Notes: a model not told the origin generated them from the letters alone. 31,760 nt of DNA from Bacteroidales bacterium (GCA_035421345.1 DAOLWT010000001.1:1-31760), one strand, 5' to 3'. Numbered from the stretch's first letter, positions 1 to 9,263 are shown. Numbers and translations are program-made.

Positions 1-134
1 ACCATCTATTATGTACGCGATGCACAAGGCAATATAATGGCAACCTATAGAAAAGGAACGGGAAGTATACAAAATCCTCCACTAACGTTGGTAGATTTGC
101 AACTCTATGGCAGCAGCCGATATGGCGTATTAAA
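1..134 (+). pseudogene. Rhs core fragment of the main (upstream, partial) Rhs gene, interrupted by a 118-bp insertion
   Basis: Frame 1 reads TIYYVRDAQGNIMATY...LQLYGSSRYGVLN, a Bacteroidota Rhs core motif. It runs into TAA at 148-150 inside the inserted element. Removing 135-252 joins it in frame to YNKTIAEK...HMLGNKQY of the 341-1420 ORF. Confidence 0.85.
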
Positions 135-252
135 TTATACCAATTGTTAATTTAAAATAATCCAACGGATATTTTAAATTTTACAATGGTAATACCGATG
201 ACAAAGATGTTATAGTACAATTTATTGGACTATTACATCTATGCAATCGGTA
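135..252. mobile_element. 118-bp double-hairpin insertion element, copy 1
   Basis: Matches 8291-8408 at 115 of 118 positions by manual alignment. It consists of two tandem imperfect palindromes and interrupts a coding frame. Confidence 0.85.
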
Positions 253-317
253 TTACAATAAAACCATTGCTGAAAAACCGGAAATTAATCCACCTATATA
301 TTATATTGCTTCTTTTG

Positions 318-530
318 AAAATTCTACTTATTTTAGCCATATGTTAGGCAATAAACAATATGGATTAATTAATCTCCCGATACCTATCGGGATGGGGAAT
401 GTACTTACAACAGTGAGCGACCGCAAAATACCCCATACAAGCGATAATATAACGATTGACTATTATACTTCCGATATTACAAGTGCGCAAGACTATTACG
501 CATTTGGACAATTAATGCCCGGCAGAAACT
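318..530 (+). repeat. 213-bp Rhs-core direct repeat, copy 1
   Basis: Near-identical to 2726-2938 and 4648-4860; encodes STYFSHMLGNK...DYYAFGQLMPGRN. Confidence 0.9.
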
Positions 531-1420
531 TTAGCAGTAATACATATAAATACGGCTACAACACCCAAGAGAAAGTAGACGAAATATCAGGAAGCGGAAA
601 CCATTATACAGCGCAGTTTTGGGAGTATGACCCAAGAATAGTAACGAGATGGAATAGAGACCCTGTTACCTTTCCTTGGCAAAGTCCTTATGCTATAAAC
701 AATAATAATCCAATTGTTTTTACTGACCCACTTGGTTTGTTTGGTTCTCGTAAAGAAGCAAGAGAGTACAAAAAGGAACACGGATTAAAGGGGAGAATAC
801 AAAAAGGTGATGATGGTATTTTTTCTATAAACGACAAAAAAGGAGGAGCAAGTTATTACAAAGACCATTCATTAGATGATGTACCTAATTTAATAGGAAG
901 GCAGGATGATGGAGTTATAAAATCTGTTCTAGTTAGTGCAGATGAAGCAAGCAGTCCTTCTGCTGGTGCTTACTCTGACGGTGCAGAAGAGTTTGGAAAA
1001 AGAGGCGGTAAGTTGAAAGTAAGTACTGATCCACTGAAATCTACAGGTAAGATAAAATATTATGATAATGCTTGGGGTGGCAATCAATACACTAAAACCA
1101 AAAATGTATTTAATAAAGGACTAACAAAAGGGATTGCTAAACACGCTCCAATTATTGGGCATATATTAGATGCAAAAGAAGTAATAGACGGTATTCAAGC
1201 AGATGGAAATGCTATTGGAGCAAATACAGCCATCGAAGTTGCTGGAGTGGTAGGTGGTGCAGGCGGTGCTTGGGCTGGTGCAGCAGGTGGTGCCGCTATA
1301 GGTTCTTTAATTTTCCCTGGTGTTGGAACAGTAATTGGCGGAGCAGTAGGTGCTATATTAGGTTCTTGGGGTGGTGAGGAAGCCACAGAAGCAGTAACAA
1401 GAAAAGCAGTTGGAGAGTAG
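341..1420 (+). CDS. Rhs core plus C-terminal toxin tip with glycine-zipper hydrophobic region (putative membrane-active toxin); 3' part of the interrupted main Rhs gene
   Basis: Rhs core YKYGYNTQEK...RWNRDP...NPIVFTDPLG, followed by a tip ending in GGAGGAWAGAAGGAAIGSLIFPGVGTVIGGAVGAILGSWGG. Confidence 0.85.
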   Translation: MLGNKQYGLINLPIPIGMGNVLTTVSDRKIPHTSDNITIDYYTSDITSAQDYYAFGQLMPGRNFSSNTYKYGYNTQEKVDEISGSGNHYTAQFWEYDPRIVTRWNRDPVTFPWQSPYAINNNNPIVFTDPLGLFGSRKEAREYKKEHGLKGRIQKGDDGIFSINDKKGGASYYKDHSLDDVPNLIGRQDDGVIKSVLVSADEASSPSAGAYSDGAEEFGKRGGKLKVSTDPLKSTGKIKYYDNAWGGNQYTKTKNVFNKGLTKGIAKHAPIIGHILDAKEVIDGIQADGNAIGANTAIEVAGVVGGAGGAWAGAAGGAAIGSLIFPGVGTVIGGAVGAILGSWGGEEATEAVTRKAVGE

Positions 1421-1424
1421 AATT

Positions 1425-1922
1425 ATGGAAAGAATTTGGAACTATTTTTTTTACTCAACTTGGTATGTACAGCTTAATTTAGGAGAAACATTAATCCGTA
1501 AGCCTATTTATTTTATTATGCTGCATCTTTTCCCGTTTCTCCGAAAGAACTTACATAAGGGACAAAAAGACTACAACAAAGTGATGAACAATAAAGATTT
1601 TGGTTTTAATATTGGCTTTGCATTTGGCTTTATGTTTCTAACAACAATGGTTATTTATACAAGTATTTGTTTGTTCCTTGTTAAGTTACTAAACATAGAT
1701 GTTGAAGATACAATTTACTATTACTTCTTTGCTGTTGTAGCTTTATCATATTTAACTAACTATTTTTTTCTTTATCGGGCAGATACTTACAAAAAGCACT
1801 TTGAAGAATTTGAAAAGATTAAAAATAAGTCACGAATTTATCTTTCTGCTGTTTTATTCCATTTGGCAATTATTGGCTTTGGAATATTGTCAATACATTT
1901 TACAGTAGGGTTTAATATTTAA
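1425..1922 (+). CDS. Putative immunity protein 1, integral membrane
   Basis: Starts 4 nt after the toxin stop and has several hydrophobic segments. ATG at 1425 is preferred over the TTG at 1410, which overlaps the toxin gene. Confidence 0.7.
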   Translation: MERIWNYFFYSTWYVQLNLGETLIRKPIYFIMLHLFPFLRKNLHKGQKDYNKVMNNKDFGFNIGFAFGFMFLTTMVIYTSICLFLVKLLNIDVEDTIYYYFFAVVALSYLTNYFFLYRADTYKKHFEEFEKIKNKSRIYLSAVLFHLAIIGFGILSIHFTVGFNI

Positions 1923-1926
1923 AAAA

Positions 1927-2427
1927 ATGAAAATGTTACAATTAGCAATTATTCTTATGATGTTTGGGAGCTGTTCCCAAGAAAAGATGGTAAAATACAC
2001 AGGTAAAAATCATGAAATGCTTTATCCTGCGAGTTGGGCAAAGCAAGAAAAATCAAATGCAATATTTTTTCTATCACCAAAAGAAAATGAAAAAGATTTA
2101 TTCCAAGAAAACGTAAACTTGATGTTGCAAGATTTATCGCAACAATCTATGAGCTTGGAACAATACACCGAGCTAACCAAGAAACAGGTAGTAGATAATT
2201 TTGGAGCATCTGCTATTATATCGCTAAAGAATACAACAATAGCAGGGCAACAGGGGAAAGAATTTGTTTATAGTATGAATTATCAAGGCAGGAGTTTAAA
2301 GTTAAAGCAGTATTGGTTTATTAAAGGAAATATTGCTTATTTGTTCTCATATACAGCTGACCCAACAAAGTATGAGAAATACGAAAGTGTAGTAACAGAA
2401 ATGATAAAGAGCTTTAAGATTTTTTGA
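1927..2427 (+). CDS. PsbP/DcrB (DUF1795)-like lipoprotein
   Basis: Lipobox FGSC; the LYPASW, FQENVNL, IAGQQGKEFVY and AYLFSYTA patterns are typical of the PsbP/DcrB fold. Confidence 0.7.
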   Translation: MKMLQLAIILMMFGSCSQEKMVKYTGKNHEMLYPASWAKQEKSNAIFFLSPKENEKDLFQENVNLMLQDLSQQSMSLEQYTELTKKQVVDNFGASAIISLKNTTIAGQQGKEFVYSMNYQGRSLKLKQYWFIKGNIAYLFSYTADPTKYEKYESVVTEMIKSFKIF

Positions 2428-2448
2428 TACTGAAAAACAAAACAGTGG

Positions 2449-2482
2449 AAACGTCAGGCATACAGCTTGGCGTTTTTGTTTT
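2449..2482 (+). terminator. Putative intrinsic terminator
   Basis: Stem AAACGTCAGG/CTTGGCGTTT (with G-U pairs) followed by a T-rich tract, downstream of 2427. Confidence 0.5.
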
Positions 2483-7915: not shown

Positions 7916-7950
7916 AGGAGATCGTTTAACGCATTGTGTCCCTCAGTTCC

Positions 7951-7988
7951 CTCCGTTCGCGCGCGTTTTAGCGTAGCGTAACGCGTGC
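7951..7988 (+). repeat. REP, inverted partner of 8969-8997
   Basis: CTCCGTTCGCGCGCGTTT[TAGCGTAGC]GTAACGCGTGC equals the reverse complement of 8969-8997 plus a 9-nt loop insertion. Confidence 0.9.
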
Positions 7989-8058
7989 AGAAATAATAAA
8001 ATTAAAGCGCCAAATAATACCGAAAGCATATATTTAATGGTCCAATAAATGAACTCTA

Positions 8059-8182
8059 GATGGCGCTCGTTGCAGCCGTTAGCACTTCAGATGGCGCTCG
8101 TTGCAGTCGTTCGCGCGCGTTTAACGCAGTGTAACGCGCCTGCCTTGCCGCCTGCATACCGATAGGCATGGTAGGCAGGTGC
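8059..8182 (+). repeat. REP cluster with doubly nested palindromes
   Basis: Two 21-mers (8060, 8091), then CGCGCGCGTT..AACGCG[CCTGCCTTGCCG[CCTGCATACCGATAGGCATG]GTAGGCAGG]TGC. Confidence 0.85.
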
Positions 8183-8264
8183 AAAATAGACGATTAAAGC
8201 GCCATCATAACAATCATAGCAAATATTTTTTTCAAATAAAAAAATAATTTATCTTCGTTTTGTT

Positions 8265-8952
8265 ATGTCAGAAAAATACAAAACAGCAGATTATACCAAT
8301 TGTTAATTTAAAATAATCCAACGGATATTTTAAATTTTACAATGGTAATACCGATGACATAGATTTTATAGTACAATTTATTGGACTATTATATCTATGC
8401 AATCGGTAAAAGGAAAAAGCGTATTTTGTAACGTTTACAATTATTGAATGGCTAAAAGTATTGCAAGATGATTCAAATAAAATGATTATCGTTGATGCAA
8501 TAAAATTTTATCAACAGCACCGGGGCTTGATTATATATGCATATTGTATAATGCCAAATCATGTGCATTTAATGGCTCAATCGAATGGAAAAGAAACACT
8601 TTCGGCAGTGTTACGCGATTTGAAAAAATACACATCGAAAGCGATGATAAAAAAATTAGAAAAAGAAAACAATGTTGAAACAAATAACGCATTAACTATT
8701 TTTAAAGAAGCCGGAGAAAAACTTAAACGAATAAAAAATTACAAAGTGTGGCAAGATGGAAATCGCCCCATGGTATTATATACGAACAAGTTTATTTGGC
8801 AAAAAATAAATTATATACATAACAACGCAGTGGAAGCAGGATTAGTATCAATACCAGAGGATTATATGTTTAGTTCAGCCCGGAACTATGCAGAATTGAA
8901 TAGTTTGCTTGAAATTGATTTGATTTCAAGAGAGTTAATAACAGTAAAATAA
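8265..8952 (+). pseudogene. REP-associated tyrosine transposase (RAYT, HUH/Y1 family), interrupted by the 118-bp element
   Basis: MSEKYKTA + insertion + KEKAYFVTFTIIEW...AYCIMPNHVHL (HUH)...VWQ...INYIHNN (catalytic Tyr)...SSARNY. Removing 8291-8408 gives a 189-aa ORF. Confidence 0.85.
8291..8408. mobile_element. 118-bp double-hairpin insertion element, copy 2
   Basis: Three substitutions relative to 135-252. Confidence 0.85.
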
Positions 8953-8968
8953 AAAAATAATTAATAAG

Positions 8969-8997
8969 GCACGCGTTACAAACGCGCGCGAACGGAG
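8969..8997 (-). repeat. REP at the 3' flank of the RAYT gene
   Basis: GCACGCGTTACAAACGCGCGCGAACGGAG, 16 nt after the RAYT stop. Confidence 0.9.
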
Positions 8998-9191
8998 TCT
9001 TTAAGTTTTCTTAATCGGCTTAAATAGATTTCTCGTTGTATCATTTGTTTTTTATACAAAGCTATAACTTATTGACGAAAAATCAAATAAATGTCATTTT
9101 TAGTCAATATAAATTGTTTTTACTTGCAAATGAAGTAATTAAAAAAAGTACCTTTTAAAGAAATATCGTTCGTGGGCAAAGCTTACCTCAA

Positions 9192-9263
9192 ATGGCGCCC
9201 GTTGCAGCCGTTAGCGCCTACCTAACGCCTGCCTTCCCTTTAGGCGGGCTACAAAGCAGGTGC
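9192..9263 (+). repeat. REP-like repeat with CCTGCC-type insertion (9228-9260)
   Basis: ATGGCGCCCGTTGCAGCCGTTAGCGCC...AACG[CCTGCC...GCAGG]TGC. Confidence 0.8.

Follow-up and report, generated by a model that had tools for sequence, protein, structure and literature searches.

REP hairpin repeats behind Rhs toxin-immunity cassettes next to a broken RAYT gene in a wastewater Bacteroidales bacterium

In a Bacteroidales bacterium from wastewater, an Rhs locus carries four spare toxin/antidote cassettes, each ending in a hairpin repeat cognate to a RAYT gene. A RAYT gene together with its cognate hairpin repeats (REPs) is called a REPtron, and here the REPtron directly adjoins the Rhs cassette array. 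"The window" refers to the whole stretch of DNA that was analyzed (31,760 nucleotides). We lean, by a modest degree, toward reading the locus as an eroding island of orphan Rhs toxin-immunity cassettes adjoining a REPtron, with the REPs being carried cassette 3′ ends that serve as recombination joints. The work establishes the anatomy of the locus, the rarity and clustering of the REP family, breakpoints both in REPs and in the Rhs core, and the broken state of the RAYT gene. In the literature, we found no description of a link between this RAYT clade and Rhs loci, nor of a defined 3′ repeat (REP) as the exchange site in Rhs arrays. All genome-wide counts refer to an assembly of 2.25 Mb that is 81.6% complete, and related arrays were compared as assembled metagenome contigs (identified by L-numbers), with sequencing runs covered as Logan contigs.

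Rhs modules and candidate immunity genes

The first-pass annotation had described four toxin-immunity modules, and a profile search found the Rhs-associated core (TIGR03696) in all four. Their toxin tips are mutually unrelated. The modules and the repeats lying among them, other than REPs, are as follows.

1-1420, +, 5′-truncated Rhs fragment, the 3′ part with toxin tip 1 (glycine-zipper C-terminus); TIGR03696 core and Gly-zipper_Omp, frame interrupted at 135-252
135-252, +, MITE copy of 118 bp that splits the Rhs frame; 97.5% identical to 8291-8408
1410-2427, +, two candidate immunity genes of cassette 1 (ORFs), a membrane protein (1410-1922) and a PsbP-like lipoprotein (1927-2427; PsbP_2)
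2659-3906, +, orphan 2, with a 67-bp leader, core repeat (2726-3011) and toxin tip 2; repeat coordinates, TIGR03696 at 57.7 bits
3908-4147, +, candidate immunity gene 2, 79 aa; an ORF that occurs on 22 contigs
4370-4590, +, copy of a dispersed repeat family, "B2", of about 20 copies; repeat comparison
4578-5714, +, orphan 3, with leader, core repeat and M91-peptidase-like toxin tip; profile matches, repeat coordinates
5723-6247, +, candidate immunity gene 3, 174 aa, signal-peptide-like start; ORF
6414-7310, +, orphan 4, whose core is cut deeper (begins AFGQLMPGRN), with toxin tip 4; ORF, TIGR03696
7454-7915, +, candidate immunity gene 4, 153 aa, lipoprotein-like; ORF

The downstream ORFs are candidate immunity genes on the basis of their position and size. 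The core repeats, given as 213 bp in the first-pass annotation, in fact measure 286-341 bp, with 79-91% identity to one another; three of the cores contain an in-frame 18-bp palindrome, and orphans 2 and 3 share both a leader and a core breakpoint.

This layout resembles the Rhs main gene plus orphan arrays of Enterobacteria, including the orphan Rhs of Salmonella (PMC3967940), in that its co-oriented cassettes each combine a core piece with a variable tip and a short gene behind it. It differs in that no full-length Rhs heads the array: the first gene is 5′-truncated and split by a MITE. The upstream context, visible in L019, shows an ORF that begins mid-repeat, 452 aa before the window's MITE, and is preceded by an inverted REP and a gene for a CGGC-domain protein. 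The 118-bp MITE has more than 100 matches genome-wide, many of them at contig ends, and is missing from L054 at the site matching window 135-252.

REP elements behind the cassettes

The 21-mer ATGGCGCYCGTTGCAGYCGTT lies at 4156, 6272, 8060, 8091 and 9192, always on the + strand, exactly as first annotated. The rest of the window holds no copy even when 3 mismatches are allowed (shuffles also give 0). By itself the 21-mer is not a hairpin. It forms the left arm of a longer hairpin element of 70-120 nt, which is the REP cognate to the neighboring RAYT. Its own fold is no more stable than that of shuffled sequence (z about 0), against z -3.9 to -4.6 for complete REP elements. The elements and the RAYT gene that they surround are listed here.

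2545-2656, +, REP A, without right arm, made up of a type II left arm and inner hairpins, with the palindrome CCTGCC..GGCAGG nested inside; sequence, fold z -2.8, matches REP E
4155-4195, +, REP B, left-arm fragment, the joint to a shared downstream stretch (4196-4369); 21-mer search, joins in relatives
6271-6320, +, REP C, left arm and inner hairpin CTCGTT..AACGAG, without right arm; sequence, fold
7920-8020, +, REP D, degenerate left part, inner hairpin (7951-7988) and right arm TTAAAGCGCCAAAT; sequence, fold, L032 breaks at 8001
8059-8208, +, REP E, solo left arm E1 (8059-8089) followed by E2 (8090-8208), with terminal stem GATGGCGCT/AGCGCCATC; fold -31.2 kcal/mol, z -3.9
8266-8952, +, RAYT gene of subclass 2.6/group 5 type, split by a MITE at 8291-8408; Pfam Y1_Tnp, NF047646
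8969-8997, -, REP F, inner hairpin, inverted relative to D and E, which closes the REPtron; repeat comparison, L051 homology stops at 8966
9191-9270, +, REP G, left arm and split inner hairpin, without right arm; 21-mer search, fold

E2 is the sole complete REP element in the window, and B and E1 are left-arm fragments that do not fold. Between REP copies, G:C to T:A changes are seen on both sides of the inner stem. The inverted pair at 7951-7988 and 8969-8997, also noted in the first pass, is real, with 18 nt perfectly complementary. The REP foot reads GATGG, with no GTAG (or CGTC) tag.

A CT is present no more than 5 nt upstream of each of the 27 distinct left-arm junctions. Simple homology does not account for it, and it calls to mind RAYT cleavage at C|T. 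Solo left arms are also stacked (E1/E2, L007, L010, L011 and L014), an arrangement that resembles repeated cut-and-join more than crossover.

The family is rare and clustered. About 12 left arms are present in the 2.25-Mb assembly, six of them at 2545-9212 in the window, within 7 kb of the locus. This is far from the scatter over hundreds of sites that the first-pass annotation had named in advance as counting against its proposal. Exact copies of the 21-mer number five genome-wide, all on the window's contig, with a single 1-mismatch copy on C89; further REP copies occur elsewhere in the assembly on C89, C223, C263, C4 and C57. The high dispersed copy number typical of REP/REPIN families is thus lacking, with about half of the copies at one locus. 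Among 399 other Bacteroidales genomes, REP matches were at chance level only. A 3.4-Mb genome with an intact RAYT has 3 exact left arms and 3 one-mismatch matches, only some of which are confirmed elements.

A left arm in coding orientation follows the last immunity gene in at least 10 different cassettes (four in the window and six on related metagenome contigs). In eight cassettes it is no more than 35 nt from the last antidote stop, and in six its start lies -2 to 23 nt past the stop. The gaps of 7, 23 and 35 nt reported previously are correct: 7 nt in cassette 2 (4147 to 4155), 23 nt in cassette 3 (6247 to 6271) and, in cassette 4, 35 nt to the REP D hairpin (7915 to 7951), with the first left arm, E1, at 143 nt. 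The type II left arm lies 117 nt past the stop in cassette 1 and about 20 nt past it in the L011 cassette.

One explanation of this placement is incidental: dispensable, AT-rich, horizontally acquired DNA would collect all small repeats, the REPs would come from the neighboring RAYT and have no role in exchange, and breakpoints would mirror the variability of REP clusters. The same 9 kb does house two MITE copies, one B2 repeat, the 18-bp core palindromes and palindromes nested in REPs, neither the Rhs fragment nor the RAYT is functional any longer, and E. coli REPs are known close behind stop codons. In the same genome, a REP is also missing from the assembled DNA downstream of two Rhs tips that belong to other core families; for one of them (C285) this DNA amounts to only 128 nt. 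On the other hand, a family of about 12 copies per genome would then have to have inserted independently at least 10 times behind unrelated genes, each time at almost the same position and with the same orientation. We consider it possible, if on balance unlikely, also in view of the breakpoints described below.

Position past the stop would likewise be accounted for if the REP were an RNA element, a carried 3′ hairpin that protects or tunes the immunity transcript. In most cassettes the REP is 0-35 nt past the stop, and it is always on the coding strand. A T-run hairpin at about 6338-6372, read from the sequence and not recovered by a scan, comes next after REP C, and the REP C counterpart in L008 has one too. 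In E. coli, REPs are reported to influence the stability of mRNA and, where they lie within 15 nt of the stop, its translation. Since several copies (B, E1) are non-folding left-arm fragments, and since breakpoints are left unexplained, we judge this explanation very improbable as the whole story. Within the recombination-joint reading that we prefer, the hairpins may have an extra role in stabilizing immunity transcripts.

The RAYT gene and its relatives

The RAYT gene scores 93.6 bits against NF047646 (NCBIfam REP_Tyr_transpos, cut-off 80) and 4e-8 against Pfam Y1_Tnp. When the 118-bp insert (8291-8408) is skipped, the 189-aa protein reconstructed in the first-pass annotation is recovered, and it aligns gap-free with intact 189-aa relatives. 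The gene itself is not intact, as the insert sits after codon 10 and brings an in-frame stop. The motifs PNHVHL, KVWQDG and NYIHNNAV are present, YIHNNA deviating from YIH[QN]NP by loss of the final P. Subclass 2.6 of Quentin et al. 2018 (PMC6006769) corresponds to group 5 of Bertels et al., and its members are reported to be unconserved in the tag-recognizing region (PMC6006769).

REPs D and E lie upstream of the gene and the inverted REP F downstream, a layout repeated in L046. With E. coli TnpA-REP (PMC3333891) and subclass 2.6 (PMC6006769), the REPtron has in common a single HUH Y1 gene, inverted hairpin flanks and extra copies elsewhere; with subclass 2.6 it further shares the NHVH, WQ and YIHNN motifs, a Bacteroidota host and "atypical" flanking structures. 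In L009 a toxin-antitoxin pair replaces the RAYT gene, which parallels E. coli. Unlike those systems, the REPtron has about 12 copies instead of hundreds, half of them in one toxin array, as well as GATG instead of GTAG at the foot, a MITE-like terminal stem and a broken gene.

Every RAYT copy on record with more than 95% identity to this one is a truncated ORF; no intact relative exceeds 75% identity. An intact RAYT of 73% identity in another genome has the same element family alongside it, with a different, co-varying inner hairpin. The assembly (2.25 Mb, 81.6% complete) has no second RAYT of this clade, and none of five intact relatives (about 70-75% identity) lies beside Rhs genes. Across 25 other Bacteroidia genomes, copies of the clade are found near Rhs cores about 6 times more often than expected by chance (8 of 42 within 10 kb of a core, about 1.2 expected). 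In G539, the repeat upstream of the RAYT is found again behind the last cassette.

Breakpoints among related strains and comparison with other systems

Breakpoints confined to the core, which the first-pass annotation had also named as counting against its proposal, are not what relatives show: the breakpoints reach the REPs as well (window 8090, about 8966, 4155/4195 and 8001). Exactly at 8090, immunity gene 5b is fused to the window sequence in four independent assemblies (L012, L051, L052 and L053); in L008, the same gene keeps the same 6-nt spacer and 22-mer, followed by a different REP body. Three different cassettes have been joined at the REP B site, namely those of the window, L007 and L008/L054-L063. 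Cassette 6 is joined to window 4195 onwards in at least 10 assemblies, at 97.5-99.8% identity, cassette 8 is joined at 4154 in L007, and L032 breaks at 8001. The core accounts for the absence of cassette 2 from L030, via the leader/core repeat, for an Rhs fragment fused to tip 3 in L042 and for the joining of 6569 to 4935 in run X7. Metagenome contigs may be chimeric, yet the same joints turn up in assemblies made independently, and the final k of the assemblers exceeds the length of the repeats.

In total, 5 of 9 mapped breakpoints are inside REPs, which cover about 6% of the region. This, together with an identical spacer and left arm staying by immunity gene 5b in two contexts, argues against the REPs being incidental acquisitions. 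The best-resolved joint shares only 22 nt, which is little for RecA-type recombination; it is equally compatible with a site-specific cut at the left edge.

The unit 8090-8966 occurs in two contexts. The flanks agree at only 91%, the unit itself shows 3 SNPs, and the MITE within it is 100% identical. Because this MITE-carrying unit is near-identical in both, the RAYT unit changed context when it was already broken. Hairpin-bounded in two contexts and with a Y1 gene between sub-terminal hairpins, the unit recalls IS200/IS605 elements and their miniature derivatives. It differs from them in scoring below the cut-off of the transpos_IS200 model (28.5 vs 55 bits), in being single-copy and in having moved already broken.

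In our preferred reading, a once-active RAYT probably seeded REPs locally behind stop codons, and each REP left arm moves along with its cassette. The REPs would now be the 3′ joint for cassette exchange, deletion and stacking, with the Rhs core repeats, 286-341 bp, as the 5′ joint. Ordinary short-repeat recombination, or hairpin breakage, between the arrays of related strains would be the mechanism, as opposed to present-day catalysis by the RAYT. In Salmonella, REPs serve as join-points of chromosomal duplications. Core-repeat deletions and fusions are also seen in the orphan arrays of Enterobacteria (PMC3967940); the array described here differs in that each cassette has a defined 3′ repeat, the REP, where exchange happens.

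Alternatively, the RAYT, before it was broken or another acting in trans, could drive the exchange by cutting single-stranded DNA at C|T next to the left arms and rejoining strands, thereby excising, inserting and stacking cassettes as an integron integrase does at attC. For E. coli TnpA-REP, C|T cleavage and strand exchange in vitro are established (PMC3333891), and here CT lies within 5 nt of the 27 left arms. The cassettes end, as integron cassettes do, in a folded-DNA site just past the stop; solo left arms are stacked, joints fall exactly on the left-arm edge (8090, 4155) and the REPtron is bounded exactly by its own hairpins in two contexts. The excess of this clade near Rhs cores in Bacteroidia and the repeated G539 element point the same way. 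Against such an enzyme-driven system, the gene is broken in every near-identical copy and the broken unit nonetheless changed context, the assembly has no other RAYT of the clade, all five intact close relatives are away from Rhs genes, the leader and core breakpoint common to orphans 2 and 3 fit duplication and recombination, and no circles or empty sites were found among the assembled contigs compared. We therefore regard it as improbable, while RAYT-catalyzed capture of cassettes is possible.

The first-pass annotation had proposed an integron-like arrangement. The part that stands is that REP-bounded cassettes are exchanged at REPs beside core recombination. Mobilization or seeding by the RAYT is weakened by the MITE-broken copies, the movement of a broken unit, the five intact relatives away from Rhs and the classical core deletions and fusions (L030, L042, X7). 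The array is like an integron in having an imperfect palindrome just past the stop, a single orientation and a strand-transfer enzyme gene at one end; it has no IntI, attI or attC consensus, its enzyme gene is at the distal end and its cassettes share 5′ homology. The Bacteroidales rAID arrays are similar in their co-oriented short orphan-immunity genes with conserved intergenic motifs. They are defined by a tyrosine recombinase, whereas the neighbor here is an HUH Y1 nuclease and the cassettes retain full toxin tips. No tyrosine recombinase of the IntI or rAID type was found in the window's first 10.5 kb or in the 2 kb upstream.

For the bacterium, the window locus may now be chiefly an immunity store. 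More broadly, and rather doubtfully, the Bacteroidota REP-RAYT could represent a second, HUH-based cassette platform, in which the enzyme would cut single-stranded DNA at C|T next to the REP foot, join strands and so capture, stack and exchange REP-ended toxin-immunity cassettes, with the window as its fossil. If this is true, REP-RAYT would treat REP-ended cassettes much as integrons treat attC cassettes.

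The Rhs island and its REP elements

The assembly to which the window belongs, as contig C1, comprises 340 contigs (2.25 Mb, 81.6% complete, approximately 33% G+C). Close protein relatives carry the labels Bacteroidota or Bacteroidales. Many studies of wastewater and digesters have metagenomes in which this lineage is common, and sludge and digester samples of 13 studies hold it. Bases 1 to 9300 hold four co-oriented modules. In each, the Rhs-associated core (TIGR03696) is joined to a C-terminal tip unrelated to the others, and one or two small ORFs follow; we call the Rhs core piece, toxin tip and candidate immunity gene(s) together a cassette. 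Tip 1 has a glycine zipper and tip 3 is M91 peptidase-like, while the domain search matched tips 2 and 4 to no family. The first Rhs gene is a fragment. On metagenome contig L019 it starts mid-repeat, 452 aa ahead of a 118-bp MITE, and upstream of it lie an inverted REP resembling REP F and a CGGC-domain gene. The island is thus bracketed by REPs and has no complete Rhs gene. By analogy with rAID arrays, which are stores of immunity genes (PMC12247911), it may now be mainly an immunity-gene store. An 18-bp palindrome lies in frame in three of the Rhs cores (375–392, 2783–2800 and 4705–4722). Directly past the island, at 9364–10395, is a DUF1016/YhcG PDDEXK nuclease gene (194 and 157 bits); we saw nothing to suggest that it takes part in the array. 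GC skew switches sign near 13 kb; gene orientation confounds this, so we did not use it as an argument on strand-specific insertion.

Repeat features of the island
A, 2545–2656: left arm and inner hairpins
B, 4155–4195: left-arm fragment
C, 6271–6320: left arm and inner hairpins
D, 7920–8020: hairpin and right arm
E1, 8059–8089: left-arm fragment
E2, 8090–8208: the sole complete element in the window
RAYT gene, 8266–8952, split by a 118-bp MITE
F, 8969–8997, reverse strand: inner hairpin, inverted
G, 9191–9270: left arm and split hairpin

Read from its copies together, the REP is a composite of left arm, inner hairpin, the words GTGCAAAA and right arm. The left arm is GATGGCGCTCGTTGCAGYCGTT or, in a second type (type II), GATGGCGCGCATTAA..., and its start pairs with the right arm, TTAAAGCGCCATC. 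The inner hairpin is G+C-rich (GCGCGTTT..TAACGCGC); in a CTCG/CGAG variant, both strands of the stem have changed. Complete elements folded far better than shuffled sequences (z of −3.9 for E2, −4.5 for L008:1844–1915 on another metagenome contig, and −4.6 for the copy in L046, from a genome with an intact relative of the RAYT); a solo left arm folded no better than its shuffles. Small CCTGCC..GGCAGG palindromes, one nested in another, sit within the inner hairpins between AACGCG and TGCA (2633–2653, 8138–8182 and 9228–9260). We consider it very unlikely that the REPs act mainly at the RNA level. An Rfam scan of bases 1 to 10,000 at the E-value threshold gave only sub-threshold chance matches; the repeats belong to no known RNA family. 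A terminator scan did not flag the T-run hairpin behind REP C; we therefore do not claim termination.

Other repeats are dispersed through the same DNA. Copies of the 118-bp MITE that are 97.5% identical split the first Rhs frame (135–252) and the RAYT gene (8291–8408), both behind ATTAT; the terminal inverted repeats are imperfect (TACCAATTG / CAATCGGTA). More than 100 sequences in the assembly match the MITE, and many of them lie where a contig ends, so it is the probable cause of the fragmentation. Contig L054 has the Rhs site free of the MITE, and in it an IS with a DDE_Tnp_1 transposase (1794–3122) lies inside toxin tip 6, there attached to the MITE-free Rhs gene. The "B2" repeat at 4370–4590 (approximately 220 bp, approximately 20 copies, GC hairpin GCAGCCCGC..GTGGGCTG) often adjoins REPs (C4, C89, L010). 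A third family, AATCGAAGAGAATAATGGCCTTCAGGAAATTT..., approximately 180 bp long and present in dozens of copies, is regularly found behind the right arm in complete REPs (L008:1916–1975; C89, reverse strand, next to 300; L011:1625–1830; L019:700–760) and may form one composite element with them.

REP positions behind cassettes and across the genome

All four window cassettes end in a REP in one orientation, as the first-pass annotation had proposed. Metagenome and MAG contigs carrying the 21-mer of the left arm come from the same lineage and added six further, different cassettes with the same arrangement. Each cassette of the window's Rhs family ends in a REP, always oriented as the genes are.

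Distance from the last stop codon to the REP
Cassette 1 (window): 117 nt to left arm, type II, REP A
Cassette 2 (window): 7 nt to left arm
Cassette 3 (window): 23 nt to left arm
Cassette 4 (window): 35 nt to REP D hairpin, 143 nt to first left arm (E1)
Cassette 5 (L008): 6 nt to left arm
Cassette 6 (L008): −2 nt to left arm, the stop TAG overlapping TAGATGG
Cassette 7 (L011): approximately 20 nt to left arm, type II
Cassette 8 (L007): 21 nt to left arm
Cassette 9 (L010): 10 nt to left arm
169-aa ORF (L009): approximately 8 nt to truncated solo arm, approximately 23 nt to full arm

Behind two Rhs tips of other core families, on C209 and C285, the assembled sequence had no REP (C285 stops 128 nt past its last ORF).

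The 21-mer occurs at the five window positions first reported for it and nowhere else in the window; the rest of the genome has one copy with one mismatch, on C89. With loose patterns, the 2.25 Mb yielded approximately 12 left arms along with 7 inner hairpins. This is an incomplete assembly whose contigs break at repeats, but for the most part these are the 118-bp MITE and not the short variable REP units. Bases 2545 to 9212 hold 6 of those left arms and 5 of the hairpins. The 21-mer was absent from 40 relatives. Of 401 Bacteroidales genomes searched for the 13-mer left arm, all but our assembly (G000) and G291 (identical with G041) had only single matches within genes, which we attribute to chance because the reversed control gave a similar rate. 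Because there are some 12 left arms, six of them in the window, and only chance matches among relatives, the REP is not scattered over hundreds of sites. Matches to the 21-mer in two high-GC metagenome contigs (L013, L015) lie in coding DNA and were set aside as chance. The genome with the intact RAYT relative has three exact left arms and three one-mismatch matches, four of which were confirmed as elements.

Breakpoints among strains

The window haplotype is stable: over the whole array, MITEs included, it is matched at 99.9–100% by more than 15 contigs drawn from many samples, and Logan contigs of run X2 confirm it in pieces. Logan contigs from four runs gave many joints at REP coordinates, but most have sides under 30 nt and may reflect cross-mapping among REP family members; of these joints we used only the one in the core from run X7 (side 52).

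Mapped breakpoints relative to the window
8090, first base of E2 (REP): immunity gene 5b joined exactly here in four independent assemblies (L012, L051, L052, L053)
8966, edge of REP F (REP): homology with L051 stops
4195 (REP): cassette 6, then a 29-nt left-arm module, then the window onwards, in at least 10 assemblies at 97.5–99.8% identity
4154 (REP): cassette 8 of L007 joined via three stacked left arms
8001, within REP D (REP): L032 leaves the window
2659–2991 versus 4578–4913 (core): L030 is without cassette 2, via the leader/core repeat
Tip 3 (core): Rhs fragment fused to it in L042
6569 to 4935 (core): joined in the X7 contig
4698: L025 leaves the window beside a copy of the 18-bp palindrome in the Rhs core

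REPs therefore hold 5 of the 9 mapped breakpoints, although they make up approximately 6% of the region. The core breaks in L030, L042 and X7 bear out the expectation that recombination through the core would run alongside. Neither of the two outcomes named beforehand as unfavorable, REPs at hundreds of sites or breaks in the core only, was what we found. On L008, immunity gene 5b is followed by the identical 6-nt spacer and 22-mer and then by a different REP body. A reconstruction from run X12 tentatively places cassette 2 directly ahead of the RAYT gene.

We lean toward the view that the REPs are recombination joints that the cassettes carry with them. That they are incidental decoration, sitting in the array and taking no part in exchange, we regard as rather unlikely. 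Elsewhere in the assembly (C4:20000–20140), a short Rhs fragment, QGIDYAYTLQGWIKGVNSDALEANYDIGKDGALNI, protein-identical to part of the window Rhs fragment, adjoins genes for a 117-aa protein, a prolyl isomerase (PPIase) and pheS. The same genes follow the RAYT gene and its repeats in L051, which suggests movement of the array, whole or in part, between two loci.

The RAYT gene and cassette exchange

The Y1 HUH gene behind the fourth module scored 93.6 bits against the NCBIfam REP_Tyr_transpos model (cut-off 80) and only 28.5 bits against the IS200 model (cut-off 55). It starts at 8266 (MSEKYKTAD), acquires an in-frame stop from the insert at 8291–8408 and resumes at 8410 (KEKAYFVTF). Natural intact orthologues exist; a 189-aa relative, MSEKYKTADKEKAYFVTF, aligns without gaps to the remainder at 73% identity. 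Based on its NHVH, WQ and YIHNN motifs, length and host, the gene is assigned to subclass 2.6 of Quentin et al., which is group 5 of Bertels et al. (PMC6006769). The annotated inverted pair of REPs around it proved correct: D/E lie upstream and F downstream, in the layout of a REPtron, where a RAYT gene is bracketed by its repeats (PMC3333891). In the L046 genome, the intact RAYT lies between the same left and right arms as in the window, and the inner hairpin differs and recurs inverted behind the gene. This is how a co-evolving REP-RAYT pair should look. On L009 only the first 22 bases of the RAYT remain, followed by a HigB/HigA-like toxin-antitoxin pair still between REPs (reverse strand, approximately 1330–560), which parallels the recorded loss of an E. 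coli REPtron to a toxin-antitoxin operon (PMC6006769); C89 retains only the last bases.

RAYT-driven capture of cassettes is, in our judgment, unlikely, despite several observations in its favor. A CT lies within 5 nt upstream in 27 of 27 distinct left-arm junctions, in a pyrimidine-rich flank (CTTCA, CTCTA, CCCTA, CCTT, CTCT); we estimate the chance expectation at this base composition as about 1 site in 5. In vitro, TnpA-REP of E. coli cleaves single-stranded DNA at C|T close to a REP and carries out strand exchange (PMC3333891). In E1/E2, L007, L009, L010, L011 and L014, solo left arms follow one another head to tail and each has a CT word at its end, and at L066 a REP copy in the intact-RAYT genome adjoins a truncated Rhs core. 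Across 25 contiguous Bacteroidia genomes, picked for contiguity and RAYT presence and not for Rhs content, coordinates were listed for 42 RAYT copies, and 8 of these have a TIGR03696 core no more than 10 kb away, against approximately 1.2 expected under random placement; this is a first estimate from a rough hand count, kin are non-independent, and RAYT and Rhs may both simply favor genomic islands. The eight copies occupy 7 loci, and the 6 genomes that hold them (three copies in G539; also G689, G690, G627, G475 and G456) represent 6 families. Most copies are downstream of the core, on its strand and less than 3 kb away. The tally of 112 of 301 from the RAYT survey takes in the unpublished G571 and G495; all other results are independent of both. 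In G539, a RAYT from this clade closes an Rhs orphan array (L127, C2:128000–146000), and a 68-nt repeat, 99% identical between its copies, is found both past the final cassette and immediately ahead of that RAYT. The same locus, from another Bacteroidia family, has a 62-nt repeat behind two cassettes.

Against this, all proteins more than 95% identical to the window RAYT in a large protein collection are truncated ORFs of 163 or 126 aa (one of the clusters has 22 members), and the nearest intact 189-aa proteins reach at most 75% identity. The unit at 8090–8966 (E2, RAYT and MITE) differs between the window and L051 by three SNPs. Its MITE is 100% identical in the two, and all other MITE copies in the genome differ from it by at least three positions. 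L051 nevertheless continues into the 117-aa, prolyl isomerase and pheS genes, only 91% like their C4 counterparts, whereas the window continues into the DUF1016/YhcG nuclease gene. Because the unit and its MITE are near-identical and the flanks differ, the broken unit changed context after breakage, and it ends exactly at its own hairpins. A second active RAYT acting in trans is an unlikely partner, since the sole other Y1 gene (C287) is of a different type on a contig of different composition. That gene (C287:1850–2480) has a run of GGAATC/GGGATC-like repeats within its coding region and follows a DNA methylase-like gene on a higher-G+C contig. What stands of the proposed integron-like, RAYT-run platform is that cassettes break at REPs; we do not credit this RAYT with running it, given that its near-identical copies are all truncated and the broken unit still changed context.

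We know of no accepted mechanism for the 3′ join of a newly captured Rhs or polymorphic-toxin cassette. Rhs orphan arrays, the subclass 2.6 REPtron and MITEs are known parts. In the literature on REPs with orphan or polymorphic toxins, we found no description of REPs as the constant 3′ border and exchange points of Rhs cassettes; Rhs is unmentioned in Quentin et al. (PMC6006769), and a mobilome preprint discusses REPs apart from rhs genes. The toxins belong to the inter-bacterial kind, and the organism is environmental. A REP that forms the 3′ border of every cassette and is a point of difference among strains is a concrete, testable object for both tip shuffling and the purpose of RAYTs and REPs, with short, defined substrates. 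If the REPs are only recombination joints, the classical model of core recombination gains a 3′ homology arm; if a RAYT drives the exchange, the array would represent a gene-cassette system of a new class.
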